35,480 nt of DNA from an uncultured Gammaproteobacteria bacterium. GTDB taxonomy: Bacteria; Patescibacteriota; Microgenomatia; UBA10105; UBA927. Every line of letters starts with the position of its first letter. Position 1 is the first letter of the stretch. The notes beneath the pieces are model-generated. The model did no database searches and was not told where the DNA came from. It was given only the letters and a program-made list of their open reading frames with translations. The DNA lies in assembly GCA_964533995.1 (NCBI GenBank), contig CAZHOQ010000002.1:1-35480 (forward strand). The letters run 5' to 3'. This document shows, piece after piece, positions 8-34,823 of this stretch. The position numbers and the translations under genes were made by a program.

Positions 8-3000
8 ATGGGCCGCCAGGTTGTGCAGTATACCGTCACGGTTGACGGAGAGATTCATGAATTATTGCTGGTGGAAGATCCGGCGGTCCCCGCGCTCACT
101 GAGGAATACCTTGCCGGTATTGTCCGCACCAAGAAGCAGGTACAGGCAGAAGTTTCAAGCTTCCTGTATATGCAATGCGCGGACGCATCATCCTGCGCGG
201 TAGACCGGAGTGATGCTGATCAGGTTATCGGTACGGTTGAGCAGAGTGATGTCATTGATTCGAACCATTTTGTGGCCGAGGACACGATGGAAGACGGCAC
301 GAATACGATGATCGATTACACATTCGGGGACAACGTAAGCAAAAAGGGCACGGTTCTTATCGTTCACACCGGCACGCATGAGCAGCTCGTGGAATTTATG
401 AATCAGACGTTTGATGGCGAATGGGGAACACTGGAGAATATATTCAGAAGGCCGGGAGAGGATGAGATTCCGGAATTCAACACGATACCGGATTATGAAG
501 CATGGCGACGTAATAATCCGCCGCCGGAGGCGAGGACCCAGATGCGCCCGGTACGCCAACCTAATGGAATACAGCAGTTATTTGCCCGTGTAGGTGACTG
601 GTTTGCCCGGATCCTGCGCCTGCCGGAAGACCGTTTGCGCGGCGATGCGCTCTATATATCTCAAAACGAAGCATATTGGAACGAAATAGTGCGGATGTGG
701 CGGGAATTTTGGCAACGGAGAATCAGTCGTTCTGCCGTACCTATTACCAAAGAATCGATTATTGCAGATATCCGTCAATCTTCGCCGATACTCAACAGGG
801 ATGTTATATCCCGTGCGCTTCCGGGTGATCTGAAGGTACTTGCGGAAGTAGCTGCGGATCAGACCGTCCGGGAGCGTGTTGGACTGCAGGACGGGTATCG
901 GGATCTGATCATTCGAATTATCACCAATACCCTGCGGGTTACCGGAGTTGAGAAAGACCGGATGGTCGCCAGTTTGTTCGACACGTTCGATGCCATACTC
1001 ACGTACGCGGTTGTGCTGGACGCATCCGATCCGGTAGCGGCACAACAGGCGTATCAGAAAGCATTGGCCGTAGCCGGAGCAATTCGGGAGATCCAGAATA
1101 CGACAATAAACCGCGACCGAATCGAGCGCAAGTTGAATGATGTGGTATCCGATACGAACCGGCAGGACATCGAAGAATTCATGGAGAATACACTTGGTGG
1201 GGACAGACTCCTCTTGGCACTCGCTATGCGGAACGCGATGGGAGGGAGCGTCCGGATTGAGGCATCTGTGGATGAATTGCGGGCGCAGCTTGCCACGGCA
1301 ACGCATGATCAGCTGGTGCAGATACAGAGCGACATAGCGACACGCCGGGCGTTCAGCGGATGGCCTACCATAGGATCCATTATAATCGGCGGACAGAAGA
1401 CTGATACGCTACAATTGCACTTCAATCCGTTCGGCTTGCAGAAGAATACATCGTACGAGTTCGAAACGCTGTATCTGGGAGTCACCGACCTGCTGGCGCT
1501 GCTGCGTGAGCTTGCGCTGAACCAGACAACCGTGCCGGCAGGTGCTCGGGTGTTGGGAGAACGGAAAAACAGGATTTCCGCGGAGCGTACGGATTTACAG
1601 ATGGCGCAGATTGCTGTGACCCGGCTCGGATTCCGGCTTGTTTCTGTGACGACCAATGACCGGACGAATACGTTCCGTTTCATGACCGACGCGCAAAAAG
1701 CGCAGATGTTAACCGACCTGCTTGCGAATCCGCAATCAAATCCGGAAGTGGCAAATGGTCTGTTTGCCATAGAAGCGGATACGGAAACGCTTCTTCGTGC
1801 ACAAGCGGAACTACAGCGCATCAGGTCATTGCTTGAGAGGCGTGTCGTTCGCGGCGGCAGGACGGAAGACGATATTCGATTGTTGTCGATTTTGAATCAC
1901 ACAATCGGAACGGACGCTAATGCGAGTGACGTATCTGTGGACGCTACAACAGCGCGGAATCCACAGGATGAAAGTGCGCAGCGTTCAGACAGCGCTGTTA
2001 CGCAAGATGATAATGCGCCGCTAACCTTCGATCGCGGGTCGGGTTATAACCCGGACGCACTGTATTTTTCCCAGCAGCTTGCCTTATTGGATGAATTATC
2101 CTGGCAGTTTCAGCAGCTGTGGGCTTCGATTCGCCGTTGGTTCGGCAGGGGTTCTTCGGTGGAACAGCAGCAACAAGAGCGTCAGATACAATTAATAAAT
2201 CAACTACAGTCCGGGGCGACCATGCTTCCGGAGGGTATCATGTTACGCGGACCGCTCGATGATAATCAGAACGTGTTACTGCGTCTTGCACGAAGCCGGC
2301 AGGAAAACCGAAGGGCGCGCAAGGAAACGGAGGCGCTTCGCAGGCTCCAAGGACATGACGACGTGCCTGAAATTATTCTGGAACAGAAGACCGGATCCGT
2401 AGGAGATATCCGATACAGTTATGCCACGAGCGAAGTAGCGGGCGCCAGTTTGCTCGGATTATCAAATGAACCTTTTATACGGGCTGAAGCAACGCGATTG
2501 CGTGAGCGGATGACGACTCAGGATAAATTGGATATCCTTCGCGGACTTATCGGGCATACGAGGGTATTCTTACAAAGTGGGGTTGTGCGCGGCGGGTATC
2601 AGTTGAGCGATCTGACCGTTTATCGGGATGAGGCTGGTGCACTTCATGTTGGAATCCGCTCGTTTTACAACAGTACAACGTTCCGATTAACCGGCATATT
2701 CAAGCAGCGGGCGCCGATGACGGATGTTGAGGCAATATCCGGCATCCTTACGGGAATTTTTGCCGATCCGGATTTGGTCCCGGCGGACATCCTCAGTTGG
2801 TCGCCGAATGACTATGCGACACCGGAAGAGGCGCTGAATGCCCTGGAAAACGCCATAGATCAGGTTACTTTAGAAGAAATTACGGAGATTGAAAACCAAC
2901 GTATAAGGTTGTTTGGTAATGAAGCGGCCGTCATACCGACCATATTTAGGAATGATGCTCAACCTGACATCGAGGAACCGCCTGGTCCGTCTCCGTTGCC

Positions 3001-6000
3001 GACACCGACGATCAGCCAACAGATGCGTGAGCTTCGGGAGTTAACCAACCGTAAGCGGGAGGAAAATTTCCCTGCAATCGAGCAGCGGATAGAGGAACCG
3101 GCAAGTGCCGTCATCGCGCAGGTTCGCGACGACCTCAATGCGTTCATGGGTCAGGTGCAGCTCTTCCGGCGGGACCGGAACACGTTTACAGAGCAGGACG
3201 AACAAACGGCAGTGCGGTATTTCCTCGAGATGCTCCGTGAGCGGTACAGCACGCGGCTTGCAACGACGCATCCCGACCGGTTTGCCGAAGTGTCGCTGGG
3301 ACAGAGCGCTGAGAATCACCCGCTCGATATTCTGCTTGCCTCGACGCTTTCCATCCTCAATGAGGAAAATTCCCGGCAGTTTGAAGTACTTATGACCGTA
3401 TGGAACGCGATGGAGCAGGAACGGAATTCCGCGTCCATTGCCCGGCCGCAGCAACAACCGCGTCCGGCCCGGAACGGTTTATCACTGGGCCAGGCACTCC
3501 GGAATTTCGTGAACAATACCCTGCTTGGCAGGGGAGCACGCCGCCAGCCGTTTACCGGGGAAGCGCAGGCACTCGTTATGAGTACCTTACAGAGACTGGT
3601 CTCACCGCGGGAAAATACGGGCGGCGGCACAAGCAGTTTCAGCTCTGCGGCAATGAACGAGGTTTGGGAATTCTTCGCCCGCCGGCTCACCGATCCTTTG
3701 CATGCCTATACGATCCAGGGGAATCTGACAAGAAACGTGTTCCCGCAGGGCGCGCAGCCGTTCGTGACCAACAGCATGCTCCGGGAATTCAACCGGGTCG
3801 GGAAGAACCCGCAGCGCGTATGGTCCTCGCTCGCGCTTCCGCTCTTCCTCCAGCAAGGGTTTTCGGTCGCCGGCAGGCTCGACGTACGGAATTTACGTGG
3901 CGCCAATAACGTATTTTCCCAGGCGGGATATGCGGCGTACGGCGATTATGTCCTGCGGTTGTTTGCCGACCGGATTCTGGGATCACTGCCGGCGGGATAT
4001 GAGCTTGTTCGGGTCGGTGGGGATGAATATATCGTTGTCGGTCCGGCCGGTCAGCCGGCACTCGACGTGCAGTCACTCATCGACCGCGCGTTGTCGAAGA
4101 CCCAGGTGCTGTACTCGGACGGTGAGACCGTTACGGTGAGCGCGTTGGATGCGAAGCCGCAAGTGAATTTGCTTCCCGTTGAGGTACGGATGGAGTCGGA
4201 TGGCGGCGATTACCTAACCCATATCCAGGACAGGCCGTACACGGATGCACGGTCGATGGAACTCGCGAAGCGCTATCATCCGGTACTCGAATACGTGGAC
4301 ACCCGGCTTACTACGTCCGGGGTGGATGGTGAGGTATACGCGTATCTTAAGCGTCTCGTCGCCGTACTCCTCTTTGACGATGTCCTGCGGCCGACGATGA
4401 GCAGGCTCGCAAATGACGTATACGGCACAACGGAAGAACCATACCCCTTGTCGACCTATGAAGATCCCGAAGAGTTCATTACGACCGTCCGTCAAAGAAA
4501 TCCGTACGGCACGAAGCTCGTGCGGTTCGACTATCCCGGTGTACTCAAATCGCTTAATTCCGTCAGTTCCGCGGAAGGCGATGCCCTGATCCGCTGGCAG
4601 TACGAGCGGCTGGTGCGGTATGCCCACGACACCCTACGCCTTACGGAAGTGCACGTGTACCGGCGTGCAAACGAACTGTATCTGGCCGTTCCGGAGGAAA
4701 CGGATGTCGATCTCAATGATATGCATGCGGCGCTGTCCGGATATTTCTACGCAGGCGGCCCGATTTACCGGGTCCTGCCTGCGCTCGCCGTGGGCTATGC
4801 GGCATTCGTTCCCGATGTCGCGGATACGACGGGTCGCATGAACATCGAGTCGTTCCAGCGGACCATGAGTAGTCTGGCAACGGATATAATTGCCGATACA
4901 GGGAGGCTCGTGCGGCGTGCGTTTGTCGAAAACGAACGTCCGGCCCTCAATCCGTTAAGCCAAAGGGAAGCCGGATGGTTTGAAGATATGCCGCAGGAGA
5001 AGTTTGCGGAATCGGACCGGCGGTTTGCCGTAGATTACTATAACCCCCTGGACAAGCGGGGAATCATCAGACTTCAGAACTTCGGCGCTACCCCGCAGGA
5101 GATCCGGGAGCTTTCCCAATTTTACCGCTCCAGCCCTGATGGTACGGCAGCCGTCGTTCAGCCTGAACGCGCATATTCCATGCTGGTTGAGATATTCAGT
5201 CGTGTCGATGCGGAAGCGCCGGAAGCGGAATCAACGATCGCATTCCCCGGAATTACCGTTACCCAGAGTAGGTATGAAGGGATCATTGCGCGACTGCAAC
5301 GGCTCAATTTGCCGCCGGAGGTCCGGGAGTTTGCACATGCGCTGATTACGTATGAAAATGCGGTTGAGGATTCACGCCTTGTCATGCGCCGCGTCCCCGA
5401 TCCCGAACAATCCAAGTACCCACAGGCGTACGGTGAGCACAGCTTCAACGGTGCGACGAGTTCCTGGGAGTGGTTCACGAAATACGGGCGTGAAGGGGAG
5501 TGGAACGATATGGCAAATCATATCGCACTCCAGTTGCTTTCCGGCGCAACGGACGGCAACACGGCCGCAAATATCATCGCACTTCATGAGTTGTACCGGG
5601 CGCAAATGAGCTTCCAGATTTTTGACAGGACCGGGTCGTTCCGCACGGCAGTTTCCGGAGCGGTTCCCGAAGAAGCAACCATCCGCGCATCCATGAATGG
5701 CGCCGGATTCGGGGTAGCCGCAAGCGGTGCCGACGCCATCAACAAATCCCGGACCTACTTTACCCGCGGGAATGCCAGGACGGTAACTACTAACGAGAAC
5801 GGGTCGGAGGTCATCAGTAAAATCAGCGAGAAAAACGGCGATGTCATCATCAAGCTCCGCGATGGCAATAATGCGCTCGTGAGTAAGGAACTAATCAGGG
5901 ACCAATACATCGCGGCAATCCAAAACGGCGTCCGGTTCGTGTCCTTCACGCTCGAATCCAAGACCGGCGAACGGTACGATGACATCCTGCCTGCGATTGC

Positions 6001-12000: not shown

Positions 12001-15000
12001 GGAATCCGACGAAGTCGTCTATGCCCAGCACGGGTTCCAAGCGGACGGCAGGGTATACGCCAAGCCGATGGAAGCGATGCTTCTGCCGTATGACCGCAGC
12101 GGCCGGCGGCAGGTGAGCGTTGCTCCCGCGATCGCAGGCGCGAACGGAACCTTCGTTGCCAAAGACGGGGAATACACAATGGACGATGCCGTCGAACAAT
12201 CCTACCAATTCTATACGGCCCTTGATTCGATGTTCCATTTCCAGGGAAAGCGCGTGACCTTCATCGGCCAGTCGACCGGCGCGCGGCTCGTGCTTCTGCT
12301 TGCCGCCCGGCTTTCTTCCGCAAAGCAATTGCCTGCCAATATCCGCTTCGAGTTGGTCGCGCCGTATCTTCTTGATAAGAATCAGTTGACGATTTTCAAG
12401 GGTAATCCGCTTGCATTCCTATATGGGTACGTCAATGATGATTCCCGACCGTTATGGAGGAGACGAGTGCTTTTGTTCCTCGCCAAGTACTCGCTGGTAG
12501 ACCGGTGGATCGTCAATGACCGTTTAAGCAATCTCGGACGGGATACGGCGATCATCGATGACAGCATCATCCACCGTCAGAATCAGCAGGACATCCCGTA
12601 TACCACCCGGTGGACCAACCTGATATTGGGAGCTACCCCCTTGGACTGGGATGCATTACCCGAAGCGGTCCGGGTAGCCGAGATGCGTATCCACGTCCCT
12701 CAGAAAGAAAATATCGTCGATCACCGGTATACCCTGGAGTTCATGGACCGGCACGGACTATCATCGCGGCGCGTGAAAGTAAGCTACGAAAAGGGACATT
12801 ATCCGCCGTTGACCTCATGGGCGCAGGTAGGAAGGTATTTGAATTTTGGCGAACAGCCGGCGGCAACGCCCGTTGAGGAGGAATTCAATCTGTTTGAGTC
12901 GACGACTTCATGGGTCGGGAATTTGCGCGTCGTGGATCCCGAGGCAGCTCGACGGACCCAGTCAATTGTTGATCGCGTGAAAGATGCCCTCGCACGGATC
13001 CGTCCTTCGGATGACAATCCCTGCGGTGGGGGAGCCGGCATCATCCGCAAGGTATTTGCGCAGGATTCCGTCTTTTGTCTCTCACTCGGCGCAGGGGACT
13101 GGGTAGAACAGAAAGAGTCCCGCGCCGCCCAATCGGTTTTGAAACAATTGCCGCCGAGAGGGTACTACCGGCTATATAGGACGGATGATGACTTGCGCAA
13201 TTTTCCGTTGGTGCTAGCTGATCGGAATGCCGAGAAATCATTCGGCGGAACGACACGGATGACCGGTATCCCGGCGGGTTGGTATATCGCCGTATACGAT
13301 GAATCGGGTGCGTTTTCCGGCATCATCGATACGGCGGCCGTCGAACTGCGTTTACAACAAACAACGAAATCAGCGTTAGAATCTCCTGCCGTAACCATCG
13401 TAAGCGCGGGACTCGCAGGCGAGCGGAATAGGGGCGCCAAAATACAGGACAGGTTTGATTTGCCCTTCGGATGGAGCCGAACCGTTGCCGGAATGAGCGT
13501 ATCGTACCAGCTGAAAAACGGCGCCATTGTCACCGTCAACGGCATGGAGGACCGGGCTTCCGCAGAGTTGCTTACGGAACTGGAAACACGGGCGTACGCG
13601 CTCGCCAGGCGGATTTCGGAATTCGATCCCGCTGGGTACTCATTCCTGGACAGAGCCAATGCGTTCCGGGCGTTTGCCGACCCGTTCATTGAGGAACTAC
13701 GGAACCGTCCCAATGCACCACGGTCCACGGTATCCGTCGTGTTGCCGTACCGCGACCGAACCGGGGAACTGCGGATGCTTTCCTACCAGATCGGCGAACA
13801 GACGGTCGCATCAGTTACCCAGAAGGAAGACACGGCGGGTGCGGTTAAACTTGATCCCTTCCATGTGCCGCAGACATTTACCGGAGATCAGGCGGATGCA
13901 GTCATTGCTTCGGTACAACTGCGCAGTTCGGAACGCGCAGTCCGCGAAGCCATCGCGACCCTTATTGTGGATTCCGACCTGGTATTCCAGTCCGAAGAGC
14001 AGGCACGCGTATATTATGCATGGAGTCAGTTGCCTGCAGCCGAGCGGGCGACGTATCAGCGTATGGAAGGACGGGACGGGAAGGCATTGGTGGTGAATGT
14101 TGCCGATCCCCAGGCACAGCCCAGTATTACCGACAAGCCCGTTTACAGAAAAAGCAGGTTCATCATCGGATCGCCGGGATATACGGCAGCCGTCAATACT
14201 CCGGAGCGGGAGGGGATAGTAGCAAACATCCTCCAGTCATCCCGGAGTCCGGTTGAAGCCAGAAAGCGCATTTTGGAACAGCTCTATACATGGGGCGCCA
14301 CGAATGCCCAAAACGGGAGCGATGTGCTTTTCCAGATCGTATTTGATAACGAGGATCCGGCATTTGCTCCGCTAGCTCTTGAGGGACGCGCAGTCGTTGT
14401 CGCTTCACCGGTCGTCAGCGATGACGATCCCGTCATAAAAAGCGTCCGGACGGCGGTCGGCACGGTTGAGGTCGTCGTCGAACAGCGTCAGTCGGGTATT
14501 TCCGTACGGAAATTAACCAGCGGAAAAGAGTTATTCGTAAATGGTGTTTTGGTGGACAATGACGGTGTTTCTATATCGTTAGGGGATCAGATCAGCAGTG
14601 ACATTCAGGGGGTGACCTACGAAATCGACATCGATCCCAGAACCGGCAACATGCTGTGGCGCGATACGCGGTATTTCTTCGAGCCTGCTCCCGGGTTGGT
14701 TGGGGATGATGAGTCTAAAGTGCTTCCGATTTTGATGACGGCGATGAGAAATGATGACCAAGGATCGGTGATGGCACCCGGAAAAAGCAGTATCCTTGCG
14801 GATCTCGTGGCCAATTACATTGAGCTTGCCGCGCCAACAGCGCGGAAGATGTCGGTCGCTTCGGACATGAGGAGCTCCCGGCAGGTCGACAAGAAAAACA
14901 TCATTGCCGAATTTTTGAATATGCCGGGAATTATCGATAACGCATGGTATACGTTACGGTTCCATGACGGATTTGAGGAGTTCGAGATCGGCAGAATAAA

Positions 15001-18000: not shown

Positions 18001-21000
18001 CAGGAACGGGACGGGGATATTCGGCGGACGCGGATCGTTTGGCGTCGGGCTGGGAACAAGTGACGCGAATGGCAATTGGTTTTCGGATGTCGGGAATATC
18101 GCCGTACTCCCCGTCAACGACGGCACCGTACTCGCTGAGAGCCTTACGCAGTGGACCGACCGGTTAGACGCGGATTTTGATCCCGACCTCCTGCTGGTTG
18201 AGGGTGCCGAAGAGCCGTTCTATCTTGAGAGCGTCAGCGCCAACCCGTCATCACCCATGTATATACGCGCACTGCTCCGGGACGGGATCCGTAATCTGCT
18301 TGTCGACATCGACAACCAGCCGGTCGGTTATGTTACGAGGATCGGCGATGTCGTCATGGTTGAACTCCTGAAAGAAAAGGAAAACCAGGGAAATACGACC
18401 CGCCGTTTTGATCTCGTGATGGGCGAACCGATGCGGCTCGTGTCGGTCCGCGATGCTTCGGGCCAACAACAGACTGCGCCATGGTTCCGCTTGTTCTCGC
18501 GCATATTCGACCGAACCAACTCTGCTGAAATCAGTGGGAATGTGCCGGCGATTAAACCGTCTGCCGACACCCCGGTCCGGCAGCAGCGTTTCGACCGGCA
18601 GCATCCGGACATTCTGGCGCAATATTACCGGCGGAATCAGTTCCTGGATGAAGCGAAGCTCGTGCATACTGTCGTCGTACCCGTTGCGGCAGAACTTAAT
18701 AACGCCAATTTCCTTCGCATGTTGGCGTCGCTCAATACGTTGGATCCGAAAACCGACCCCGCAACATTCGAGATACTCGTAGTAGTCAACAACGAAGACT
18801 CCGAGGCGGGAGGACAGGCATATTTCATAGAAAATCAGCGTACCGTAAGAATCCTCCAAGCATACGGGGCCGCGCTCCTGGACAGCCAACGGATTTCTCC
18901 GGATGAGGCGGTTGCACGGTTGGCCCTTGCGTTAGCGCCATATAATCTGACTCCCGGGCAAGTTTCGCTGCTTTCTGATCTGCTTAGGAAAAAAATCCGT
19001 ATCTATGGGATAGACGCAAGTTCCGTCGGACAATCCATCACGCGAAACGAAACGGAATTCTCACCGGGAATCGCGAAAAATATCGGTACGCATATCGCAT
19101 ATGAACGCCTTGGACATTCCGCATCAAACGACACGCTGATAGATTACAAGGATGCGGATATCGCATTCCCGTCGGATTATTTTCTAACGGTCGGCCGACT
19201 GCTTCAAAGGAAGCCGGGAGCGGTGTATTTCGGGATACAAGTCGTCCCTGGCATCCTTCCTAATTTGACGAACGCCGTCCAGAATCCCAAGCAACGTCTG
19301 GCGATTGTTGCATCGTATGCGTCGGAAGCGCTCGGAGGATTTAAGGGGGCGACGAAATATTTCGATTTTTCCAATGGGGGCAGGATTCAATTCGGACGAC
19401 GGGGTTCCTACCAGGAGGGGCCACAGCTTGCGATGAGTCCGGAGGTTGCCCGCGCCCTCGGCGGATATCCGATATCCGGACGGTTCGGTGAAGATTTTAC
19501 GGCGGCGGCATGGGCGCGAGATGCCGCAACGATTGTCGAACAGTATCCTGGTGACCTCCCCGTACTTACCCAGGTGCCCGGAAAATACGACTCTACGGAT
19601 ATGTATGCCGAAAGACATCCAACGGCATCCGCAAACAAGGATCATAACCTGATTTCTGCTATTGCGCGGACATACCAGTCCTATTCCCAAAATACGGATT
19701 TTCAGCGTGCCCTTGAACGATATTGGCAGCAGGATGCTGAACGAGCATTGCATAACAGGCAAATTATTGAAGCGATAGCCCGGGTTGTCTGGATGGGCCA
19801 ACCGATCCAGACTCTCAGCGCGGAAATCCAGGAGGAAATTGCCAGGAATTCGTATCTCGTGGATTTTGTTCGCGATGTCCGTACCGTTCATTCGCCGAAT
19901 AGTCCGGAAGAATTCATGCGGATTATTGCGAAGGAATATCCGATTTTGTTCGGCACGATTCCGCAGGAGCCGGATTACGAAGAGTTGACTGGGGTATTGC
20001 GTGATGACACTTCATCCCGACTGATTAATCCCCGCGATTTCGTCCATGTCATCCGCGCGGCGTATGCGGCCGAAGCCGCAGCAAATGGCAGCAATGCCGT
20101 TATTCAGGCTTCGTCTCAAACCGCCGTCGATGGTCAGCCAGAGGACGTCGGTGAAGAAGTTGCGAAGAACTGGTACGGTAAGTTCGAAAATATCGCCTGT
20201 GGATTAGGGGCCGGGATAGTGAAGCCCGTTTATGCTCAAGGCCCGGGCGGGAGTCAGTCGGCAAGTGGTGTCTGTCAGGTCGCCAGGGCAGCCGGGACGT
20301 TTATTTGGAAGAAACCGTTGCGAGCGATTGAATTTTTCGTGCTGGATAACGTGCTTCGGCCAATCCTGAGCAGGCAGGCTCCGGCGAATAAACTGCAGAC
20401 ACTCGTAGTTGCCTACGGGGTCATCGGTGTGACACTGGGTTTGGTTTCCGTCGGATTACTCCTAAGTAGCTGGGTTGCACCTGTCGCCGGGGTTTTTGGA
20501 TTAGCTTTGACAATGATCGGGATACTTGGTTTTTGGGACATCATGGGTGTGAAAAAGTCGGCACTTTCCTATCTGTATCCCAATGCCATTCAGGTTGCCG
20601 GTAACGGGCATTTCCAGGATCGGGCAAATTGGATTCGTTATTACCAAAAACGGCTCGAGTCCGACCCGAGTTTAGCGGGGTACGTGCAGGATGCCACCAC
20701 TACCACTGCTATTTATGCTGCGTTGGAACGGTACGAGCAGGATCGGTTACGAAAAGAAATCGATGCATTTGAGGATACGAATCCGGTTGAATTCAAAGAT
20801 ATCCAGGCGCAGGCAGCACGGATTGCACCGGTGATTGGCCGATGGCGAACGTTATCATTTGCCGAACGTAATCGGATGATCGGCGAATCTATGAGCGCTG
20901 ATGATGCTCGGACGCTGGATTTCCTTGATCTCTATGGTCAGTTCCCAAATCATAGCATCCAGTTGCACGGTGATGCCGTGCTGCAAGCAGGGTTGATTCG

Positions 21001-24000
21001 GTATCATAATAACCAGTTAAGGGCTCGGGAGCAGATACTTCATGCAAACCAGTCCTATGGGCGCGTCGTGGCACATGCCGGATTCCAAGCAGCCGGGGCA
21101 CCCAACGGAACGTCCCGTATGTATAAGGACGGAACCATTCTAGTCGTGTATTTTGATCCTGAAGAGGCCGCATATTATTACAAACATCCCGACCAAGGCG
21201 GACAGTTCGAGTTTACGAATCAACACATTCTGACAGTCAACATCGCTGTATCCGGTGGGGCAGGTGAGGTGCAGAGCGTTACGAATCATGAGTATGCCCA
21301 TTCACAAAGTAAGAATAAGAGTGTGGCCAAGCTGTTTACTTTTGTATTTCTTTTCAAGACATTCGATGAGGGGGCGACAAGCGTATGGCAACATCTTCTT
21401 GATATCGTGCAGGGTCGAACACCAGAGGAATCCAGTAAATATTTGTCGTATTCGGCGGAACGAACAGCTATGGATAGGTTGTTCCGGTGGCAGCGCCTCC
21501 TTGGTGTACCAGAGCAGGCTGCAGTCCGAAATATATTAGCCATTCAGCAGGATGAAAATATCGGCGCAGGATTCCCTGCCTTTTGGCAGCGGGGTGCGGC
21601 ATGGGGAATCGTGGCGCTGTCGCGTATTACTGATTTATTTAATATCTTTGGAGCGCCCCCATTCCATAAAACCGCGTTAGGGCAGGCCGTGGCACGGTAT
21701 GGCACTGAAATCCGTAATCAAGCCTTTGAACAAGGAACGGAAACTCCGACAATCGCACCGGGCGTACAACAATACTTTATTACCGATCAGCCGGGGGATA
21801 TACTCGAATCCGGCGCAAAAGCAATTACCGACCGTGCGGAAGATCTCTTGTGTGGGGGGAATTCGGGATTCGTGAGAAAAGCATATGCGCAGAGTCCTGG
21901 CGGTAGCGGGTCGGCGAGCGGCGTCTGCCAGGTCGCCAGGGCAGCCGGGACGTTTATTTGGAAGAAACCCATCCGGCAGATTGCGGAATGGACAATCCAG
22001 CGTCCGCAGGCCAGGCCAACATTGTCAACAGACCCATCGATCTTGCTTCAGAACCTTCCTGAACGGATACAGGCCGTATTGCGCGAGGCGGATGCGGCGG
22101 CCGCACGGAAGCCAAAGACGAAGCTGGAAAAAGAGATTACGGTAAGCCAGCTTAACGACGCATCGAAGCGGTACAGGAATCAGCGGGAGCTCGTCAATAA
22201 TTATGCGATCTTCATATCACTGTACCCGGAAATCATAAAAAGCACGGTGTTCACCGGTACCCAGGGGACGGCCGACCTTGAGGTGCGGCTACAGGATGCA
22301 TATAACGCGCACGGCATGTTCATCATGGCCGGGACGCTTACCCGGTATCTGGCGATCAAGGATGCCGCGGAGGCATGGCTCGCTACTCATGGAACCGCCA
22401 TGCCGGCCGATGAGCTCCAGAAGGAAATCGCCAAACAGTTTTCCGCGGATATCAACTATGAAGAGATTGCCGAGGAGTATATCGCGCGCATGCCGGGTGA
22501 GGCCGGGCGGAACAGGAAACTGGTTGCAAACGTCAGGGACTATCTCCGGCGCAAAATCAATTCGCTTCCCAAGCAGGGGAGTCTTACTGAGACGGGGACT
22601 CTGGATATCGAAGGGTTAGAGATTTCCGAAGCGGAACTTCTTCAGGCCGTCGTCGTCCGCGCGAATGGCAGCAGGCTTGGCGGAAACAGGACAATTGATC
22701 AGATCGACGACCACGAGCTGTATCTTATTGCCGCAAGTATTATCCTCAGCAGATACGAGGTTGAGGCGACCTTCGGTTCCTATGCGATATATAAACGGCT
22801 TCTTCTGGAGTCGGATGCACATTTTGACAGTAAGGTAGAGGAGCTTACCGGTATTAAGGTTCCCTTCGGGGAAGGGCTCGTGACCTTACCGTACACGGTG
22901 CTTGACGACGCACTGCAATACATAAAACCGGAGGGTTCAAGAACTGATGCCGCTGTCTTTGACAAAGTAACCCGCGGTACGTTTATTAGGACCGACATGT
23001 TTGCGCCCATCGGGTGGCTTCTCCATATCCGTGCCCACGAGCGGATCCACCAGAAGCAGACCCAAAAAACCGGCGGCGTCTCGGCGCAGGACGGGTCCTA
23101 TATCGAGGCATTCACCGATATGCTGGCAAGCGCCGTGTACCCGCATGAGTCCAGCTATTCGTCGGCGGTTAACAGGATTGCCCGTGCGCACCAGCTTCTG
23201 TTAGCCGCGGCTGGTAATCCTGAAGTACGGGTCAAAGAGTTGTGGAAGAGTATGGCGCTGACGGCATTTACCGGGAACCATTACGGGTATGACGAATCGA
23301 CCGGGGAAAAGATTCCCTACTACGGTACGCTCATGGAGGAGGAATTCGGTATCGGCGTATTCATACAGTGGATGAGTGAGTCGAGCTTCATTTTCGATAA
23401 CGGAAGGAACACCGACGCATGGTTTTATTATCCGCAGTATTTTTCCGAAAACGACCGGCTCGCCTATGATGCGCAAAGCGGCCTCTATCAAGTGGCAGCT
23501 ATTCTCCTTAACCGAAGCGCGCTGAAACCGAAGGAAGTGCGCCGGGCAAATCTTCCGTTCACTCCGGCATGGTTTACGGCCATAGGGTCCGAGACGATGG
23601 GGAATCAGTATGCTAGGAGATTCCAGCGCCTTGCCGAACTGATGCACGTATATGGAAGATACCGGACTGAACCTTCCTACGCACCCAACGAGAGTATCCG
23701 GCAGCGGGCGTTGCTGTCGCTCAAAATACTTTTCATTCATGTGTTCGTGAGCGATTACCGGTGGCTTGATAGTGACGAGTCCGTAGATGCCTATCTGCAG
23801 CGGACATATCAGCAGCGGTATCTGGACTCCGTAGTTGTGCCCCAGGGAACGGTGCCGGCAGTTGGTGCCCGCGTATTCGTGACGTACACGGATGATCAGG
23901 GTCAGCCGCATGAAAACGAGGCAGCCGTACTGGCACGCCGTTTTGAGGAGGGTGTGCCCGTTCCCGTGTGGGTCGTAATTTCCGAATCAGGGTACGAGGA

Positions 24001-27000
24001 TATCGGGCTCGTGCCTGCCGATAATCTGAGTCCGCCGGCACAGCAGTCATCCCCGGGCATCTTCCCGTTTATTAACAATCCGATTCAGGGAGTTATCCGT
24101 GCCATCTTCCCCCAAAGCGCACCGGAAAGTCCTGATCGGAAATCTGGTGCCGATACAAATACCGAGCAGCCGAAGGTTGTGAATTCCAATGAATCAACAA
24201 GGGTCACTACACAGCTTGAGCCGATCCGGGAGTTTCTGATTGCCCATCCCCAAATCAGGCAGATGGGACTGGCGGGCCAATTAGATGCGCTGATTCTTGA
24301 AGGACTTGCTACATTGACGTCTCCGGATGATCAGTACCGGTTTATACGGGAGGCAAATACGCTGTTACAGCCGCGTCTTAGCGATTATCTTGATCAGATT
24401 TACCTGCGGGACATGAAAGTTGACCTACGGAAAGAAACCGAACGACTGCGCTATCTGGTTATGGAGGAACGGTTTTTGGCTTTGGGGTTTGACTTTCATG
24501 CCGCATCATCCCTGTTTATTTACCTGCGGACGCCGGGGACGAGCGGACGGGATCTGGTGAGCGTTGTTCTGGAGGATGATGCAGAGACCGGGATTCCGCA
24601 ATTATACGTATCCGATTATCGGGGTACGACGCGCAAGTTAACGCTATTTACCGAGTATCTGGCATCGATGAAAGTAGGGGATATGCTGCAAGAAAGTTCC
24701 GGTATAGGCGGAGGCAGCATGTTCGCATACCAGAAGCAAACGGACGGTTCATTTGCAAAAGCCCGGTTGGTTGCCGCCCAGGGTTATGACACATTTACGG
24801 CGGAAGTGGTCCGCTCCGTATCGCTGTCAGCAAGCAAGTTCTGGCAAGCACTCGATGCTTCGGTACAGGCTAGGGATGCTGCTACGCTTATTGCGGCGTT
24901 GAAGACGGATCCGCAGATTGCCGAACTGTTAACACGGCAATATGAAGGCAATTCCGTCGAGGAGCGATTGCGAAAAGCTTTTCAGTCACACACGTCCGAT
25001 CCGACTCAACATTTGATCGTTACTCCTCGGGATGTGGCATTATTGTTGGTTTTTGCGGCATTTCCGCCATCGGAACGGGAGTATGTGACCGCTGTTGCCG
25101 TATCCCTTGTCAGTAATGGTGAGGTTCCGGATGGCGTAGGCCGTTTGGCACTGCTTGTCGCGTCAGGTGACGTATTCCGGTACTTCACATCCGATGATGT
25201 GGCTTCTACGGATCTGGTAAGAAAAATTGTTGATGTTGCCGCAGGATTCGGACAGAGCGAACTGGACGTCAGGGACGTGCTTACGGATGTATATCAGGGT
25301 CGATATGGCTTGCCGTTTGATACCAAAAAAGTACTTGCGCTGAATAAGGCAATCCACGCGGTTAGGGCACACACAACGAATACGGAACAGATAAGTTCCG
25401 CATTCCCGTCGTTATTCCAGCGGGTCGCCATGGTCCGGGACAATATCATACACACACCGTATCCTGCGCATCGGATTGACCCCAAAACCGGATATCCCGT
25501 ATTACCCGACGGCACTGCGGCAAGCGATCATGCCGTTATTTCCTCCTCGGATCGTGCATCGGAAGAAGATATCGAGAAGGCGAGAAAAGTGTTGGAGAAG
25601 ATTCGTCCGGACGGGACATTCATCCTGGGCCACAGTCCGACACCAGGAGACGCGTCCCAGTCCCAGCTTCTTGGCCAGGAGAAGGCGGTGCAGCTGCTCG
25701 TTAATTTTATCGTTTTCGGAATATGGCCGCAGTACGAAACACCGGAGCTTTCCCGGTATGAATCCGCTCCGTGGATCGGCACATTTAACTTGGTGGATCC
25801 GCACAACGTATCTGCCGGCCGGTATTTCGAAAACGGAGCAGCCGTCATCATCGATCCGCGTGCGGAGCATCCGTACAATGCAATAGATGAGCAGGAAACA
25901 TCAGTATATGTTCCGCCTCAATATCTTCTCTATATCGTGCCCACATGGGCGCATGGGGATCAATTGCTCCGCGAGGCCATTAAATTACGACGCCTGAACC
26001 CCGATGAGGCAAAAGATCTGGATAGCAGGATATTCACCATCCAGGATGTTATTGACGGAACATTCGAACGCTACATAAGTAGGAACGAACCGGCGAGCGA
26101 TGTAGAGCAGTTTGCCCAGGATCGCCTAGACGAGGCGGAAAACAACTGTAATGGCAACCAGACTTCGATACCAACGTTTACCGTTCATGCCGCAGGCGGC
26201 AAGGTCTGCAGTATCGCGGACCGGCTGCTTGCCAACCTGAAAGGGGCGGGGATGAACGGGGATATGCCCAACAGAACCGTCTGGAACCGTGTACGGAATT
26301 TCCTTGGATTCGATGTGAACGGGCGTCCGTCAACGCGCCGCCAGTATCCCTTGTGGATTCCCGCGTTCTTCAATTTCATCCAATACAAGGTAAATGGCGA
26401 ACCGTTCATGGTGTACCTTGACCGGGAATTTGCCAAATCTCCGGGAAAGGCGTGGCTTACCGCAAGCTGGCATCTTGCCAGGGCAGTTTTCGTATGGGCC
26501 GATACGACGCTGTTGTTCACACCGCGGAACGACATTCGCACCATGATGGTAACCATGCAAAATCCAATTGCGATGTTTGTCATGCCCATTCTGGAAGAAC
26601 TGGGGTACAGAAGTAACGCGACGCTGCAGAGAGTCCAAACCTTCCTGGGGCGTTTCGGAGTTCACTTAAGCGGATTCCAGATGCGCCGTCTTTCTGATGT
26701 CGTGTTTGTTTTGTACCATATACCCAATTACATCATCGCTCCGCAGCTTATCCCGTTCCAGCTCGTGTCGAAATTCTTCGGTGCGGCATTCATGCAGAAG
26801 CTCGCAAACGAACGGGGACTGGGCACGTCGATAGCATTCCATACGTTTTTTAACACGATGGTTGCCGCGATGGAGGCGTTAACCGTTTCCCCGAATGGGG
26901 CAGTCGCTGCCCAGTCACCTTCCTACGCCTGGGCGCCATTCGGCGTCATCACCGCGGTCCAGGTTGCGCTAGGCACGAAGGAGCTGATAGACGATTACCG

Positions 27001-30000
27001 GATTGACCGGACCCTGCGGGGTCTCAGAGCGGGAGAAGAGAGGACGCAAGCTCAAGTTTGGATACCGCGTCTTCTTGCAGTGCCAGCTACTAACGGATAC
27101 AAATATCTTTCCGGTCTCGAAATGTCCTATGAAGTGCACCGGAAGGGAAGCGGCAACGAAAGTGATGTGGTGTCTGCCGTTATTCAGGATATCGTAGATA
27201 ATGCACCCCGGAATTTATCTTCTGAGCTAATCCGGGACAGGATCGAAAACGGCTTGAAACATCTTTCGGACGTATATGGGGTTGCCCAAGATTCTTATCT
27301 TGAGGCGGTTGATGCTTGGGTAGAACAGTACCTAGAGAACGTAATTACCGCTGCACGGCAAACGCAGGAGACTTGGTGGGGGCGTATTTCCCGACTTATC
27401 AGTGATTTGTTTAGACGAGCAAGCAGTAGTCGATTCCCTCACGAAGCGGACGTCCAGGACCGCCTTGACGATGCGGAAAGCAACTGTAGCGGCAACCAGA
27501 CCTGGATACCCACGTTCACCGTTCATGCCGCCGGCGGCAAAGTCTGCAGCATCGTGGACCGGCTGCTTACTTCCCTGAAACATGATGTGGGAATGACCGG
27601 TGACATGCCGATCCGGACGATTATCGGGACGGGCGCATCTGTTCTAGGCGGGGGATCGGGCGATGCGGCGGACGGACCAATCGAACTGTACGGCACTGCG
27701 GTATCCCCCTTGTCCAGAAACGACCGCGAGCAATTATGGGCAAGCGGCAGGGATTTGCATTCGGACCGCGGCCGCGTATACGAAATTCCCGGCGGACGGG
27801 TGTACCAGGAAAAAGAGGTGTATTACCATTTCGCATCGAAGGATGCGCTTATCCGGCAGCTCCGGTTTCTTGTCCTCCTGACCCAGAAGGGATTCTTCCC
27901 TCCGGATACGACATGGTTCTATTACCGGATGGACAACGGGGAATATTCCATTGCGGCGAACATGCCGTATCTTCAGAAGACGGCAGGCATCCCCAGGCCG
28001 GACCGGCGAACCTCTTCCGAAGCGATCACCGGGCCCATGCAGCGCGTATTTTCTTCGTTCCGGATCGGAGTCAACCAAAGCGACCCGGACTACCAGGAAC
28101 AACTAGTCTGGGCGGCCATGATCGCGGCCGACGCGTTAAAGTACGACAACTGGGCAGACGATGGGAAACAGATCTACCTTATAGACATCGAAGGTGTTAC
28201 GAACCGCCCGCAGGCAGTCGATGCGGTACTGGATCATTTGGATCCGTCAGCAGAGACGGGAAATATTTGGAGTTGGTTGCGCGGATTGATTGATTTAATA
28301 CGTAATGGCGGTATCGGCGGCGGGCCGGCACCGGTTGGGGAAGGGGACGGGGAAGCGACGATACGCCTGCCGGTCACCACATCCGCCGAGCAGGTGCGAC
28401 TTAAAAGCGACGGGGCGGCGTGGCAAACGGCCAGGGAAATCCTGCTTGTTCCAATACTCCCTGTCAGATTATTCATATATTATTTCAATGGCATTGACGT
28501 GCCGACACTTGTTGGTCGGATGGACAATCTCCCCTCCGTGCTTGAATGGCTCCGGACGATTGAGGCACTCCCGATTCTTGATAAATACACCGCATCATTC
28601 GGGAAACGTCAGGCAATGGAAGAAATCTTCGATAACCTGTTAGCTAATCCGGACCGGGCGGCAATTATCCGGCATCTTCCAGATTTGCTTAACAGCGGGA
28701 AAGCACTCGGCATGTCCGAGGAGCAATTGACGGAACTTATGATCGTTACGACCGAAATGCCCGTATCGATCATGGTTAAGACTGCGGGGCTTCTGCCTAC
28801 GTTGAGGAAGTGGCATGGCGAGGATCCGTATGGCAGCTTCCTCGACAAATATAACCAAACCGGCGTCATATATGCGTTTCTCCACGTGCAGAATCCATTG
28901 CCGGTGCTGCCGTATATCGACGGATGGGTAGAGATTTTGGAAAAAGACGAGCGGCTGGACGGATTCCTGAAGACACAGGCGCTCGCGTCGCTTATCACCG
29001 CTCCCGACCCATCGCGCATACCGCCGGCGGATCTTCCTCAATATATCAATCAAGTCGTGGAGCTCCGGGGGATAGCCGAACTAACCGAAGAAGACCTCCA
29101 CTTCGAGAGTGATTACTTCGAATACGTATTCAGCAGGACGGATCCCAAGCGTACATACGAATCCGTCCGGTTTGTGTTCTATGATCCGGAGACGCTTGCC
29201 ATCATCAATACGGACCTAACCCGGCGGCAGGTTATCGGGCTTATGCGGTACGGGCTCGGCGGTTCACTTACGAGCAATCACACACTGTTCCGTCCCCTTG
29301 AGGAAATGCTGCTTGATGCAGGACTTCAGTATTCAGACATCTCACTGGTGATCGGCAGGAATCTGGATCGGTCTGCCGTACTTCCCGCGGTAGTCGCCGA
29401 CGAGCGGATTACCGGGCTCATCCGCGGACTGCGGTATCTGGGTTTTCCATCCAAGCTCAAGGGGGAAATCATCAGAAATGCCATATCCAAATTTTTGGGC
29501 GAATCTACGGAGGCGGAAAAAACAAGTATTGCAACCGAACAGAATATCGCAGCTCTGAACTCACTCTGGAAACTCCAAAACGATCCGGCGCTTATTACGG
29601 CAGGTCACTTTGACACGCTCACTGCTGAGTATGGAGAGACATTTGTCCGTGAGGGGCTGTATGCACTGGGGACGTATGTTGCCGAGGTATACGACGCCTA
29701 TACCCGCTGGATCAGGAATTATCCCGATCCTGCGAAACGGGATGAGGCGATCGGGGTGATCAAGCTTTTCAAGGAACTCGGTATCAGTATCGATAACAAT
29801 AGGATTTACGGATTTACGCATTTGCCGGAGGTCGTCGTGGTAGCGGTAGAGGCGATGCCGGACACGGATAGGGAAACGAAGACGAGGTTGCTTGTCGAAT
29901 TTTCCGCATACCGGGCGCGTGGTGATTCGCTCAAGGAAGAGGCGCTCCTAAAGATTATCCGTGAAGGCAGGTTTACGGAATTTGCGAGCGACTATCAAAA

Positions 30001-33000
30001 GCTCCGGATTCTTGAAGACCGGGATGTGATCGCGATGAAAGATGCGGCGACGCTCAATAGCCTCTATGCGAGACAACGGGAGCGCCTTCAGGAAGTCGTC
30101 GGAAGCATGTTGGAGACGCGTTATTCGGAAAAGTACGTCGCCGATCTTGTTGAGGGACTTGTAACCCTGTGTGCCGTCGTGTGTGCCAGTCAGGAAATGG
30201 TTGAATTTCCGGTGGGCAACGCGACCTTTGCTGTTCCATTGGCGTTCGGAGAAGAGCTTGCCGAACAAGTGACTGACCTTTCGGAGTTTGCCAAAAGGCT
30301 TTTTGTTTACATCATTGCCGATTCCGTCGTTAAGGAGAATCCGTACGCGATTGTTGACCTTGGAGTGCTCCAAATCGGTCAGACGGTCGATAAGGTTGGC
30401 AACAGAAGAAACGCGCTAGATTTAAATGAAACATATGCCGCGGTTCAGCGGAACATTGAGGCATCTACAGCCGTTTGGAAACAGGCTCAGGAGCTTCGGG
30501 ACGAAGAAGCGGGAAGGCCGGTATTCATCATCGCAAACGAACGGACCGCCCCGGCGGATGTGGCGGCGGAAGCGTTCTCGCCGGAAACGGCCAAAGCCCA
30601 GGGGATCGTGCAGGACGTGCCGTATGACGATATTTTCCCGTGGATGCTGGAGAATAAGGCGCTTATTGATCGGTTGTACGACCAGTACCAGAAAGGTCAG
30701 CCCCTTACCGGATCCATACCCGCGGATATCGTCCAGATGCTCGGGCTGAACTCCGGCGGCAGGATCATACCCATTTACCGCCTCAAAATCGCATCCTCAG
30801 ACGGGAATATCGGCAAGGATTCGGATGGATTTCCGGCAGTGCTGACGTTCATGAAACTTGCTTCGCTTCTAAACGGCAAGGTCCTGTTCGTTGACGAATC
30901 CACGAGAGTCGCACCCCGATCGATTGTTTCCGTATACGGTTCGCTTGACCGGCGCCAGAAGGAGCTCGGCGGCGTCCGGGTCCGGATGGTTGGGAAATTG
31001 CATAATGCCGTATGGGATACGGGCGCGAAATTTACTGATGCTAACCCTGGCCGCCCTCATATGGATGTCACCTTCCTTGATCCTTGGACCTATCAGGATA
31101 AATCCATTACGGACGACAGTTTCGGATTCGTACCGGAAGTGGAAGGAACCGGCTATGTGAAGATTGTCGTTCCGGCACAGCTTTCGCTTTCCGTACAGGT
31201 CGGCAAAACCATGCAGGATACCTGGAAGCGGATGATTGCCGGTCAGGTTGCACAGCGCATGGGCTGGGAGCAGGCGCCGGAACATGGCGCAGAAAACGCT
31301 GAGCAGGCCAAATTGACGAAAGCATTCGCCAGGCCGTATAAGGCCGTAAGCCTGGATTTTGATGGGACGTCCAACAACGAAACGATTCAGCGTGTAAGAA
31401 CGCTCCTTACCGAAGGCACAATGGTCATATTCAACACCGCCCGTTCGACCGTTGAACATCCGGAGTATAACGGAGGCATTGCGATCATATCCGACCAGCT
31501 GTCCGACTTGCCGCAGGAAGCGCTCGATTTATTGTGGTTCTCGACGGAGGACGGAGGCTACATCGCACCGTTTACGGCGCTCGAATCACCGATATTCACG
31601 GCACCTATGGAGCCTGCGGCAGAGGTGAAGATTCGCTCTTATATCCGGTCTTCCGTCCGTATCACCCGCGGCATATACGACGAACGCGTGTCGATTGTCT
31701 TGCGGTTTAATCATGGAAAGGAGACCGAGGCCGCATTAGCACAACTTACGAAATTCGTCACCCAAAATAATTTACCATTATTGGTAGTTTCCCGAAGCCG
31801 TCATGGTATTGCCATACGGTCCGATAAAGCCAGCAAGGCAAATATTTTTCCGCTTCTTGAGGAAGAAGGTGTTGCGGTGGACGATGTTCTAAAGGTAGGG
31901 GACAGTGCGGAAGGCAACGATAGGGATCAGCTTATCGGACGCGGTGCGTTCAATGTCGGCCCGAATCGGGGAGGGACCCAGGATACTATTTACTGGGGTG
32001 ACCGGGAGATCGGAACCAACGACATACTTGACCGCGCGGCGTTCGTCCCTGCCCGGGAAGGTACGGACAAGAGAACTCAGCCGGAAAGCAAGGATTCCGT
32101 GCTGGGTATCGATACGGATTGTTTTTCCGCAAATCCGTTTATACCGAAAGTATACGCTGCAGACGGATCCGGGCATACCTGCAGCCCGTTTTTCCGGGCT
32201 CCATGGAAGGTGGTATTCGAGAATGCCGATGAGGCATTCGATACGGAAAAGCGGGATAGGCTTATGAAGCGGGTAGGGGAAGAGGTTGGAGGGGTGTTCG
32301 GTACGATGGCAGACCGGTCTATCGGTCTTGCGAGAAAGTTTATAAAACTCGAATTACTGACAAGGCTCGGGTATGCCCTGTTTGGCAAGTACGGGGGCAA
32401 CTCACAGCTCCCGCCTCCGGATAAGTTCGTACTTGGCATGACCGGTGTCGGATGCTGGTTTAATAACTGCCAGGAGGGATGCACCACTGGCTTGCAATGC
32501 AGCGAAACGACCGGCTGTTGTACGGGCATCAAAAATTATAAGGACACCATATGCTCCTCGGACGGCAATGCGGAGATGGACCGGCATATGACGGATGATT
32601 TGTTCCAGCCGGATGAGGTCAGGCTCTGCGATGAGCGTGGTTGTAAGGACGGCAAATGCCAAGGATACAAAACAGATACGGACGGCCTGCCCGCATGCTC
32701 GTCCTTGCCGGTGGCATACAACATGTCGGACTTTTCGGAATGGAGTTATTTACCGGTAACCGGTTGTGTCAATGATGACGGGACGCTGGGGTATAAAATG
32801 GGTGTTCCGACGGACGAATTTAAGGATTACTCCTGCTCACTTGACGGCACCAAAGTGCTTAATACGGAAGGTGAGGTAGTGCATACATGCGGAAGCGGCG
32901 TGACCTGCGCGAAATTTGCTGATTCGGTAGACTGTTTTCTCCCTTCCTCGATCCAGGCGCTCGAAATGTGCAGCCCGACGGTGCGACTTGCAAGCGGGTT

Positions 33001-34009: not shown

Positions 34010-34028
34010 GAAATCTTTTGTGCCCGAA

Positions 34029-34814: not shown

Positions 34815-34823
34815 AGCGGGTGT

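Follow-up and report, generated by a model that had tools for sequence, protein, structure and literature searches.

Cysteine exclusion and paired-cysteine junction loops in a giant protein family found mainly in Patescibacteria

In bacteria that lack an outer membrane, exported proteins either avoid cysteine or carry an even number of cysteines as disulfide pairs, and both patterns have been taken as marks of an oxidizing compartment (Daniels et al. 2010; PMC2823432); a bias toward even counts is accepted as a sign that disulfides form (PMC2823432). Here, we describe a stretch of 35,480 nucleotides from an uncultured bacterium (contig CAZHOQ010000002.1; hereafter the window, meaning the whole stretch analyzed) in which one open reading frame (ORF), at 8..34009 on the plus strand and open on its 5′ side, encodes a giant protein of 11,333 residues with 50 cysteines. 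The unusual cysteine pattern of this protein, first noticed in a sequence-only reading of the DNA, is confirmed and is highly non-random. As a raw observation, it is explained by the established principle of cysteine exclusion and pairing in exported proteins. What is new is the setting, a family of giant proteins that has almost no annotation and occurs in ultra-small bacteria of groundwater, and whose sole conserved parts are a putative protease module associated with 36 cysteines and repeated copies of a signal-peptide-like motif that appear to be clamped by disulfides at module junctions.

In AB toxins such as diphtheria toxin, the clostridial neurotoxins, Pseudomonas exotoxin A and the Shiga toxin A chain, two cysteines 10–30 residues apart flank an exposed loop, which furin or trypsin-like proteases nick, and the two chains stay joined by the disulfide until it is reduced. 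Giant proteins with few recognizable domains, among them cytoplasmic-type enzyme modules including GGDEF, have been described from Omnitrophota in groundwater (bioRxiv 10.1101/2023.11.21.568195, 10.64898/2026.06.04.730025); the word cysteine is absent from both papers, and neither discusses disulfide bonding or loops of this kind. The giant-gene literature that we searched does not treat cysteine or Candidate Phyla Radiation (CPR) proteins, and a giant-protein family with clamped junction cassettes appears to be undescribed in it.

Cysteine use in the giant protein and its relatives

A programmatic recount finds 14 cysteines in residues 1–10,704 of the giant protein, all of them in seven pairs (57/63, 4339/4357, 6731/6756, 7282/7307, 8714/8734, 9160/9180 and 10055/10059) with a spacing of 4–25, that is, 3–24 intervening residues. 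No cysteine occurs in the 4,275 residues from 64 to 4338. The final 629 residues then hold 36 cysteines, namely 10705 and 10725 in the last of six junction loops, 30 within 10816–11127, and 11259, 11277, 11293 and 11330 at the C terminus. Five of the seven upstream pairs belong to junction loops 1–5, and the other two are mini-pairs, C57/C63 (CADASSC; 176..196), in a region for which no homologue was found, and C10055/C10059 (CAVVC; 30170..30184); coordinates here and below are on the plus strand unless the minus strand is named. The counts, the pairing of every upstream cysteine, the long cysteine-free run and the position of the second mini-pair all agree with what the sequence-only reading had reported from a manual scan, as do the two cysteines that it gave for each of the two neighboring ORFs in the window.

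The depletion is far greater than composition predicts. Over the first 10,704 codons, TGY codons occur 14 times, while about 145 are expected from the position-specific base composition; TGG, assessed in the same way, occurs 130 times with 97 expected. Because TGG is not depleted while TGY is, the depletion is specific to cysteine and not an effect of composition. With a background of 0.5%, a stretch of 10,704 residues would have 14 or fewer cysteines with a probability of 1e-10, and with a background of 1%, the probability falls to 7e-30; when 14 cysteines were placed at random 200,000 times, no placement had all of them in pairs at most 25 apart. In the window and at related loci, the ORFs that adjoin the giant genes contain 81 cysteines in 13,133 residues (0.62%), and the flanking ORFs at two further loci use cysteine at 0.48% and 0.70%. 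Cysteine makes up 0.13% of the first 10,704 residues of the giant protein and about 0.6% of these flanking ORFs, so the neighbors are roughly five times richer and are not equally cysteine-poor, as far as a small baseline of raw ORFs from a few kilobases of flank, mostly those of relatives, can represent a whole proteome.

The giant protein belongs to a rare family whose members come mainly from groundwater and sediment Patescibacteria (CPR). When 1.84 billion cluster representatives were scanned exhaustively with HMMER, only 51 family proteins were returned, including giants of 4,454–7,694 residues, and the named records among them are mostly Patescibacteria; relatives are referred to below by protein (P) or locus (L) identifiers. 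A word-indexed search with the C-terminal 734 residues returned a single homologue, P0001, which comes from groundwater of a Hainich well (0.2-micron filter fraction). GTDB genomes, when scanned, yielded eight loci, five of which are labeled Candidatus Beckwithbacteria, Candidatus Gottesmanbacteria or Patescibacteria group. The other three (L002, L003 and L007) are titled "uncultured Gammaproteobacteria"; for L007, this title looks unreliable because its gene order and gene sizes match those of L005, a Patescibacteria locus on a contig of 990 kb. No family member was found on viral contigs. What can be aligned between relatives is the C-terminal module and a set of short loop cassettes, and the remainder is either unrelated or shared as shuffled blocks. 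A word-indexed search of 5.8 billion proteins found no homologue for the first 600 residues of the window protein or for residues 8650–9250, and its N terminus has no similarity to that of P0036, a complete syntenic relative of 7,694 residues.

The same cysteine rule governs these relatives. The cargo, by which we mean the variable part of the chain, contains 86 cysteines in 64,418 residues (0.13%) across 16 relatives, and about 88% of these lie in loop pairs or mini-pairs; the sum leaves out P0008, whose N-terminal 1,000 residues form a separate domain with 44 cysteines. Past that region, the cargo of P0008 (L015) has one cysteine in about 5,900 residues. In L017, the cargo has six cysteines, all within its three loops. 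Relatives also have mini-pairs of similar spacing upstream of their loops, although homology with C10055/C10059 is not established. Cysteine is selected against in the cargo and is kept there solely as conserved partners.

Junction loops and the C-terminal module

Six loops of 18–25 residues, each clamped by two cysteines, punctuate the chain: loop 1 (C4339–C4357, CGGGAGIIRKVFAQDSVFC; 13022..13078), the paralogous loops 2 (C6731–C6756, CGLGAGIVKPVYAQGPGGSQSASGVC; 20198..20275) and 3 (C7282–C7307, CGGNSGFVRKAYAQSPGGSGSASGVC; 21851..21928), loop 4 (C8714–C8734, CNGNQTSIPTFTVHAAGGKVC; 26147..26209), loop 5 (C9160–C9180, CSGNQTWIPTFTVHAAGGKVC; 27485..27547) and loop 6 (C10705–C10725, CFSANPFIPKVYAADGSGHTC; 32120..32182), which leads into the C-terminal module. 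Their common layout is an acidic helix end, a cysteine, 4–11 residues, the motif [V/A/T]-[Y/F/H/N]-Ala-[A/Q], 3–17 mostly Gly or Ser residues and the second cysteine. This layout covers all six loops of the window and nearly all isolated cysteine pairs in the cargo of relatives; across the family, the motif occurs in 39 isolated pairs, and two more have [IV]YAD. A proline stands 1–4 residues before the [V/A/T] position in most copies; four window loops have it at −4 to −7, and the other two, loops 1 and 3, lack it. All six loops have Val, Ala or Thr at −3 and Ala at −1, with −2 variable (Tyr, Phe or His in the window and Asn in L017). The constancy of −3 and −1 beside a variable −2 follows the −3/−1 rule of signal peptidase I.

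Two relatives show the motif at the end of a genuine N-terminal signal peptide. P0004, a complete gene of 4,454 residues with upstream genes on the same contig, begins with a textbook Sec signal peptide, MHTRTKLYYIVLGFTVGIIFGSLAGLSIPKVYA, predicted to be cut before QDPIQC. P0006 likewise begins with a Sec signal peptide, MVHTSHIKIPNRTTYSFFSICLVILFVGWLFVRPALIVHA, followed by AVC. Both end in the loop motif and have a cysteine 3–6 residues past the predicted cut, as in the loops. When residues 21–45 of P0004 were compared with the window protein, the top three matches were loops 6, 1 and 2, with E-values of 0.004, 0.042 and 0.43, respectively. On sequence grounds, the loop motif is that of a signal-peptide c-region, with a predicted −3/−1 site of the signal-peptidase-I type. 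Cleavable signal peptides are too scarce among the neighboring genes for the usual cleavage motif of the organism to be derived from them, and our literature search found no paper on a VYAAD motif in the sense of a cleavage loop.

The loops coincide with breaks in homology. Residues 4613–6665 of P0036 match window residues 2298–4334 at 61% identity, and the match ends five residues before C4339 of loop 1; a match to P0051 begins 23 residues before the same loop. A further block of P0051 (4109–4750) matches window residues 8061–8701 and ends 13 residues before C8714 of loop 4. The C-terminal module of L017 shares 91% identity with that of the window protein and yet is joined through a cassette of the loop 4/5 type in place of loop 6, with the switch between cassettes about 35 residues past the second cysteine. 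Since homology breaks at the loops, they mark module junctions, and the loop layout, written as a cysteine, about 5–11 residues, [VAT]-[YFHN]-A-[AQ], 3–17 residues and a cysteine, offers a simple sequence rule for locating module boundaries in dark giant proteins. The conserved cassette is larger than the loop itself, with a helix of about 30 residues before it and about 35–40 residues after it. The loop 4 and loop 5 cassettes are 61% identical over about 80 residues, paralogous cassettes in general share 52–61% identity as protein, and the loop 6 type recurs internally in L005 and L007.

Some junctions of relatives depart from the compact form. Long-insert junctions place 160–180 residues between the first cysteine and the motif, which is followed by the second cysteine (L008 residues 2119–2299, 2749–2912 and 3055–3216, and also P0043), and some of them hold two tandem copies of the motif (IPPAFARGFGLARRAYASDG). 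We also considered and rejected several other identities for the loops. A lipobox at the second cysteine does not fit, as its −1 residue is Val, Thr or Phe in the window loops and also Gln in relatives. A CAAX-type substrate of the embedded CPBP domain does not fit either, given the residues that follow the cysteine and the position of the motif away from the C terminus. Zinc-finger clusters would need CxxC or His partners, which are absent, and the loops are far too short for Hint or intein boundaries and have no HN motif. Recent duplication at the DNA level was rejected as the cause of cassette conservation because paralogous cassettes are just 52–61% identical as protein.

The C-terminal module spans about 620 residues and consists of a β-rich region with 30 cysteines (C10816–C11127; 32453..33388) followed by an HExxH...E domain with four (33395..34006). 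In a 34% identity alignment with the Hainich relative, all 36 C-terminal cysteines are invariant, and in a 23-sequence alignment, the cysteine columns are 85% conserved, compared with 23% for the other columns. Where relatives do lose cysteines, they lose them jointly (10825 with 10838, 10988 with 11000, 11112 with 11127 and 11259 with 11277), and the cysteine count is even in all 11 complete C-terminal modules. Free loss of a single partner, which the sequence-only reading had named as evidence against obligate pairing, is thus not what the homologues display. Within the module, the spacing is C-x3-5-C with one CC, and there is no CxxC and no His partner, which fits a disulfide-rich fold rather than zinc sites.

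The motif residues H11208, E11209, H11212 and E11279 of the HExxH...E domain are invariant in all 23 sequences. In this, the domain resembles Peptidase M90 (MtfA) and other gluzincins, and two of the 23 relatives match Peptidase_M90 (PF06167), with a best E-value of 1e-5. It differs from them in that the window sequence itself has no match among curated peptidase families and its model matches no known fold. The best hit in a profile search of the PDB was aminopeptidase N, at a nonsignificant E = 0.47 over the HExxH region. An AlphaFold model built with 23 sequences reached a predicted local distance difference test score (pLDDT) of 76 and a predicted template modeling score (pTM) of 0.69, up from a pLDDT of 32 with a two-sequence alignment, and a Foldseek search with the 23-sequence model returned no credible match in PDB or BFVD. 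We describe the domain as gluzincin-like by motif and assign it to no family.

In P0006 (L022 3001–5406; also L023), a single lineage encodes the C-terminal module in a separate gene of 801 residues that has a signal peptide of its own. On two independent contigs, this gene follows, at a distance of 80 nt, a gene of more than 2,453 residues. The upstream gene is cysteine-poor, with two cysteines, 22 residues apart, in the 973 residues read. The two genes together are a natural split version of the giant.

Location of the protein and fate of its loops

Several relatives suggest that the loops lie on the outer side of the membrane. In P0004, P0051 and L007, a transmembrane helix lies 25–40 residues before a loop cassette, with Lys/Arg on its N-terminal side and acidic residues on its C-terminal side, and in P0004 and L007, the loop that follows it leads into the C-terminal module. 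By the positive-inside rule, a helix flanked in this way leaves the loop outside. Cell-wall enzymes that act outside the membrane are also present in relatives, VanY in P0020 and LytR_cpsA_psr in P0008, and the conserved gene neighborhood, with its link to surface glycans, likewise speaks for an outside location. Folding in an oxidizing, extracytoplasmic environment, as proposed in the sequence-only reading, is supported at the level of the family by the signal peptides, the orientation of the transmembrane helices and the paired loss of cysteines, and would extend from there to the window protein itself.

With moderate confidence, we interpret the giant as an exported modular protein that combines cysteine exclusion with structural disulfides and folds outside the cytoplasm. 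The window would encode most or all of it, with variable cargo, shuffled between relatives, set between the cassettes. The protein, or at least the parts that bear the loops and the C-terminal module, would fold beyond the membrane, where a stray cysteine would scramble the 25 intended disulfides or be oxidized and would be purged for that reason. Each remaining cysteine would then be an obligate disulfide partner; the C-terminal module, counted with its loop, would account for 18 pairs, and each junction for one.

Several observations weigh against this interpretation or against cleavage at the loops. There is no signal peptide in residues 1–60 of the window protein, which lie at the window edge, and P0036, although complete, also has none at its N terminus. 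The only strongly hydrophobic element of the window protein is a transmembrane hairpin about 45 residues past loop 2 (residues 6800–6841; 20405..20530), formed by its two most hydrophobic 19-mers; the flanks of the hairpin are positively charged, and the charges do not settle which side they face. Modules of cytoplasmic type occur in the chain, GGDEF-like here and SecA_DEAD and GNAT in P0036. Rare unpaired cysteines break the rule in relatives (C1018 in L004, C39 in P0004, C974 in P0020, C1979, C2400 and C2778 in P0036, and a single one in both P0016 and P0021). No hydrophobic h-region directly precedes the internal loops, so they depart from the usual geometry of a signal peptidase I substrate, which is the chief weakness of the idea that signal peptidase cuts them: in the window, 4–11 mixed residues separate the first cysteine from the motif, with no nearby upstream transmembrane helix, unlike in some relatives. 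Finally, loop 6 is modeled by AlphaFold with low confidence, at a pLDDT below 50.

How the loops would serve an exported protein is a more tentative matter. From the likeness of the motif to a signal-peptide end, each loop could be nicked after its Ala once exported, with the disulfide tethering the fragments into a disulfide-linked multi-chain assembly; we consider this a serious possibility but would stop short of calling it probable. The nick might be made by signal peptidase I, by the CPBP domain embedded in the chain or by the HExxH domain at the C terminus. Loops occur without a C-terminal module in P0051 and P0043, which argues against a strictly in-cis cleavage role for the HExxH domain. 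If the loops are cut, the giant would be a bacterial polyprotein that undergoes processing beyond the cell and whose pieces stay joined through disulfides, which would give a concrete way of testing how very large surface or effector assemblies are built, and perhaps delivered, by CPR bacteria.

The alternative that survives best is that the loops are never cleaved and act as disulfide-stapled hinges or epitopes, or are leftovers of gene fusions, in which genes for separate secreted proteins were merged into one giant gene and each retained its old signal-peptide end for structural reasons. The split arrangement of P0006, in which the C-terminal module has its own gene and signal peptide, shows that fusion or fission at a junction does happen, and the missing h-region upstream of the internal loops also speaks for uncleaved loops. 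The cassette also extends well beyond a cleavage site on both sides, suggesting a small folded unit. However, a vestigial signal-peptide end would be expected to decay, and yet −3 and −1, and in most copies the Pro, are fixed across cassette types and distant relatives, where −2 and the remainder of the loop vary. The first loop cysteine, moreover, has no counterpart in the signal peptide of P0004 (in P0006, there is a cysteine in the h-region), and its presence at every internal loop would make most sense if parts of the chain have to be kept joined. On balance, we find uncleaved loops rather unlikely.

A second alternative would keep the protein in the cytoplasm, anchored to the membrane by its few transmembrane segments, with the cysteine pairs binding metal or acting as redox switches and the depletion serving some purpose other than disulfide formation, such as protection of a long-lived chain from oxidation. 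The lack of a signal peptide in both the window protein and P0036 would be expected of such a protein, as would the positively charged flanks of the hairpin, and nucleotides or acetyl-CoA are required by the GGDEF-like, SecA_DEAD and GNAT modules. Two cysteines per loop are, however, insufficient for a normal metal site, the 30-cysteine region has no CxxC or His pattern, and paired loss with even counts indicates disulfides. Two complete members have cleavable signal peptides, N-in/C-out helices precede the C-terminal module, and VanY and LytR_cpsA_psr act outside the membrane. Together, these points leave a cytoplasmic location very improbable. That the pattern is a mere by-product of base composition, a cysteine-poor proteome or chance is already refuted within our small baseline sample, for although Patescibacteria have a reduced metabolism and the neighboring ORFs are somewhat cysteine-poor (about 0.5–0.7%), the codon counts, the richer neighbors and the simulated placements all contradict it, and relatives obey the same rule even though their cargo sequences are unrelated.

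Returning to an exported protein with disulfide-clamped junctions, a bolder extension by analogy with toxins is that the giant may serve an episymbiotic CPR bacterium as a device for delivering multiple effectors. After export, its loops would be cut, the loop disulfides would keep the modules linked as a chain, and modules would be freed where part of the chain reaches the reducing cytoplasm of a host. This would explain nucleotide-dependent modules in a chain built for an oxidizing environment, but we think it decidedly unlikely as things stand. If true, the nick-and-reduce logic of AB toxins would be present six times in one protein, and the cassettes would also be joints for the exchange of modules between strains.

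Cargo, neighboring genes and known systems

Few domains can be recognized in the cargo. The GGDEF-like region (3905..4147), with its GGDEY intact at residues 1337–1341, scores 16.3 bits against Pfam GGDEF (PF00990) over residues 1311–1372, under the gathering cutoff of 23.8; it belongs to a block homologous to P0036, P0020 and P0004, and the P0004 copy scores 25.6 bits against the same family. Two α/β-hydrolase-like regions carry GxSxG motifs, GQSTG at residue 4087 (12266–12280) and GHSLG at residue 5630 (16895–16909), and both fall below the Pfam threshold, with the α/β-hydrolase matches lying at residues 5545–5702. The GGDEF-like and hydrolase-like regions are common to other giants as blocks. 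A CPBP/Rce1-like protease region (26525..26887; PF02517 at residues ~8854–8951) is borderline: of the two chunks searched, one scores 23.4 bits, just over the 22.4 cutoff, and the second scores 22.1. By inspection, all three catalytic motifs are present, EExxxR as EELGYR, FxxxH as FVLYH and HxxxN as HTFFN, and the hydropathy of the region is just 1.25–1.33 in a 19-residue window, where a multi-pass topology is expected of the family. The region sits between loops 4 and 5 and looks like a module of about 425 residues inserted between duplicated junctions. Internal repeats are few, comprising the loop 2/3 cassettes, the loop 4/5 cassettes and the two hydrolase-like paralogues.

Other searches with the window protein added little. 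NCBIfam gave nothing but a sub-threshold diguanylate cyclase (DgcN) match, PADLOC gave no match, and sequence searches of the PDB with the whole protein gave nothing beyond sub-threshold diguanylate cyclases. No RTX repeats, cysteine protease domain (CPD), Rhs, toxin or defense domains were detected in Pfam, NCBIfam or PADLOC. The description of the chain in the sequence-only reading as carrying many domains of cytoplasmic type was therefore overstated, with weak support from one GGDEF-like region, two hydrolase-like regions and a borderline CPBP match. P0036, in turn, carries a SecA_DEAD domain and matches to GNAT-type acetyltransferases, and given these relatives, the paradox of cytoplasmic modules is real but much thinner than first stated. 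A built-in SecA-like motor is itself an odd feature of P0036, a protein that would seem to need export.

Downstream of the giant gene, the window contains a convergent gene for a PIG-L family deacetylase (34029..34814, minus strand) and the C-terminal part of a YfhO-like membrane protein gene (34824..35420, minus strand) whose relatives are about 765–770 residues long. The latter probably extends beyond the window end. A cluster of genes for a PIG-L deacetylase, a YfhO-like protein (about 765 residues), an NPCBM protein and sugar-nucleotide enzymes is kept downstream in the window, L005, L007, L013 and L017, and suggests surface glycan or protein glycosylation functions tied to the giant gene. 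The L017 cluster also includes a HAD hydrolase and a dTDP-sugar epimerase. Other surroundings are less constant, with toxin–antitoxin and Fic/AbiEii/AAA_14-DUF4143 genes adjoining family genes in L012, L016, L001/L008, L003 and L004, which hints at variable, island-like genomic contexts. P0011 (6,923 residues; L014 1–23772) begins 18 nt past the end of a further giant gene, one of 7,292 residues with FHA and Yop-YscD_cpl domains; the two may be one frame of more than 14,000 residues interrupted once or a tandem pair.

The window sequence is reproducible, being 100% identical to two Logan contigs from different runs over 24029–35480 and 33731–35278. The last base of the window (35480) is also exactly where an independent Logan contig stops, and the window reaches 60 nt past the listed start of the YfhO-like ORF. 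At the other end, no in-frame stop precedes the ATG at nt 8, nt 2–7 being open, and the giant protein may extend 5′ of the window start with its N terminus cut off. An exact search of JGI metagenomes with the first 50 nt found no match and no 5′ extension. The window probably spans the whole contig, and the giant gene may be 5′-truncated.

Compared with described systems, the giants share traits with several. Like the Omnitrophota giants, they are huge groundwater genes with sparse domains and GGDEF among their modules; they come from a different phylum, and no homology was detected. Like MARTX and polymorphic toxins, they are very large, with strain-shuffled modules and a protease domain in the same chain. 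Unlike those toxins, they have no detected RTX repeats, cysteine protease domain, Rhs or toxin family, and relative to polymorphic toxins, the order is reversed, with the conserved part C-terminal and the variable part N-terminal. The loops invite comparison with AB toxins, where a cysteine-clamped stretch, here of 18–25 residues, likewise lies between separate modules; by this analogy, one loop there would correspond to six here, each with a signal-peptidase-type motif, and there is no sequence similarity between the two. To Sec signal peptides, the loops are alike in their small −3 and −1 residues, variable −2 and proline a few residues upstream, and unlike in that the internal copies are preceded by a cysteine and an acidic helix end and have no hydrophobic core immediately before them.

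The nearest precedent for the cysteine pattern is the system of Daniels et al., in which cysteine is avoided or used in even-numbered disulfide pairs. Here, both signatures occur in one chain, with near-total exclusion over more than 10,000 residues and a 36-cysteine module at the end, and the few cysteines of the cargo are tied to one recurring element in place of being scattered in domains.

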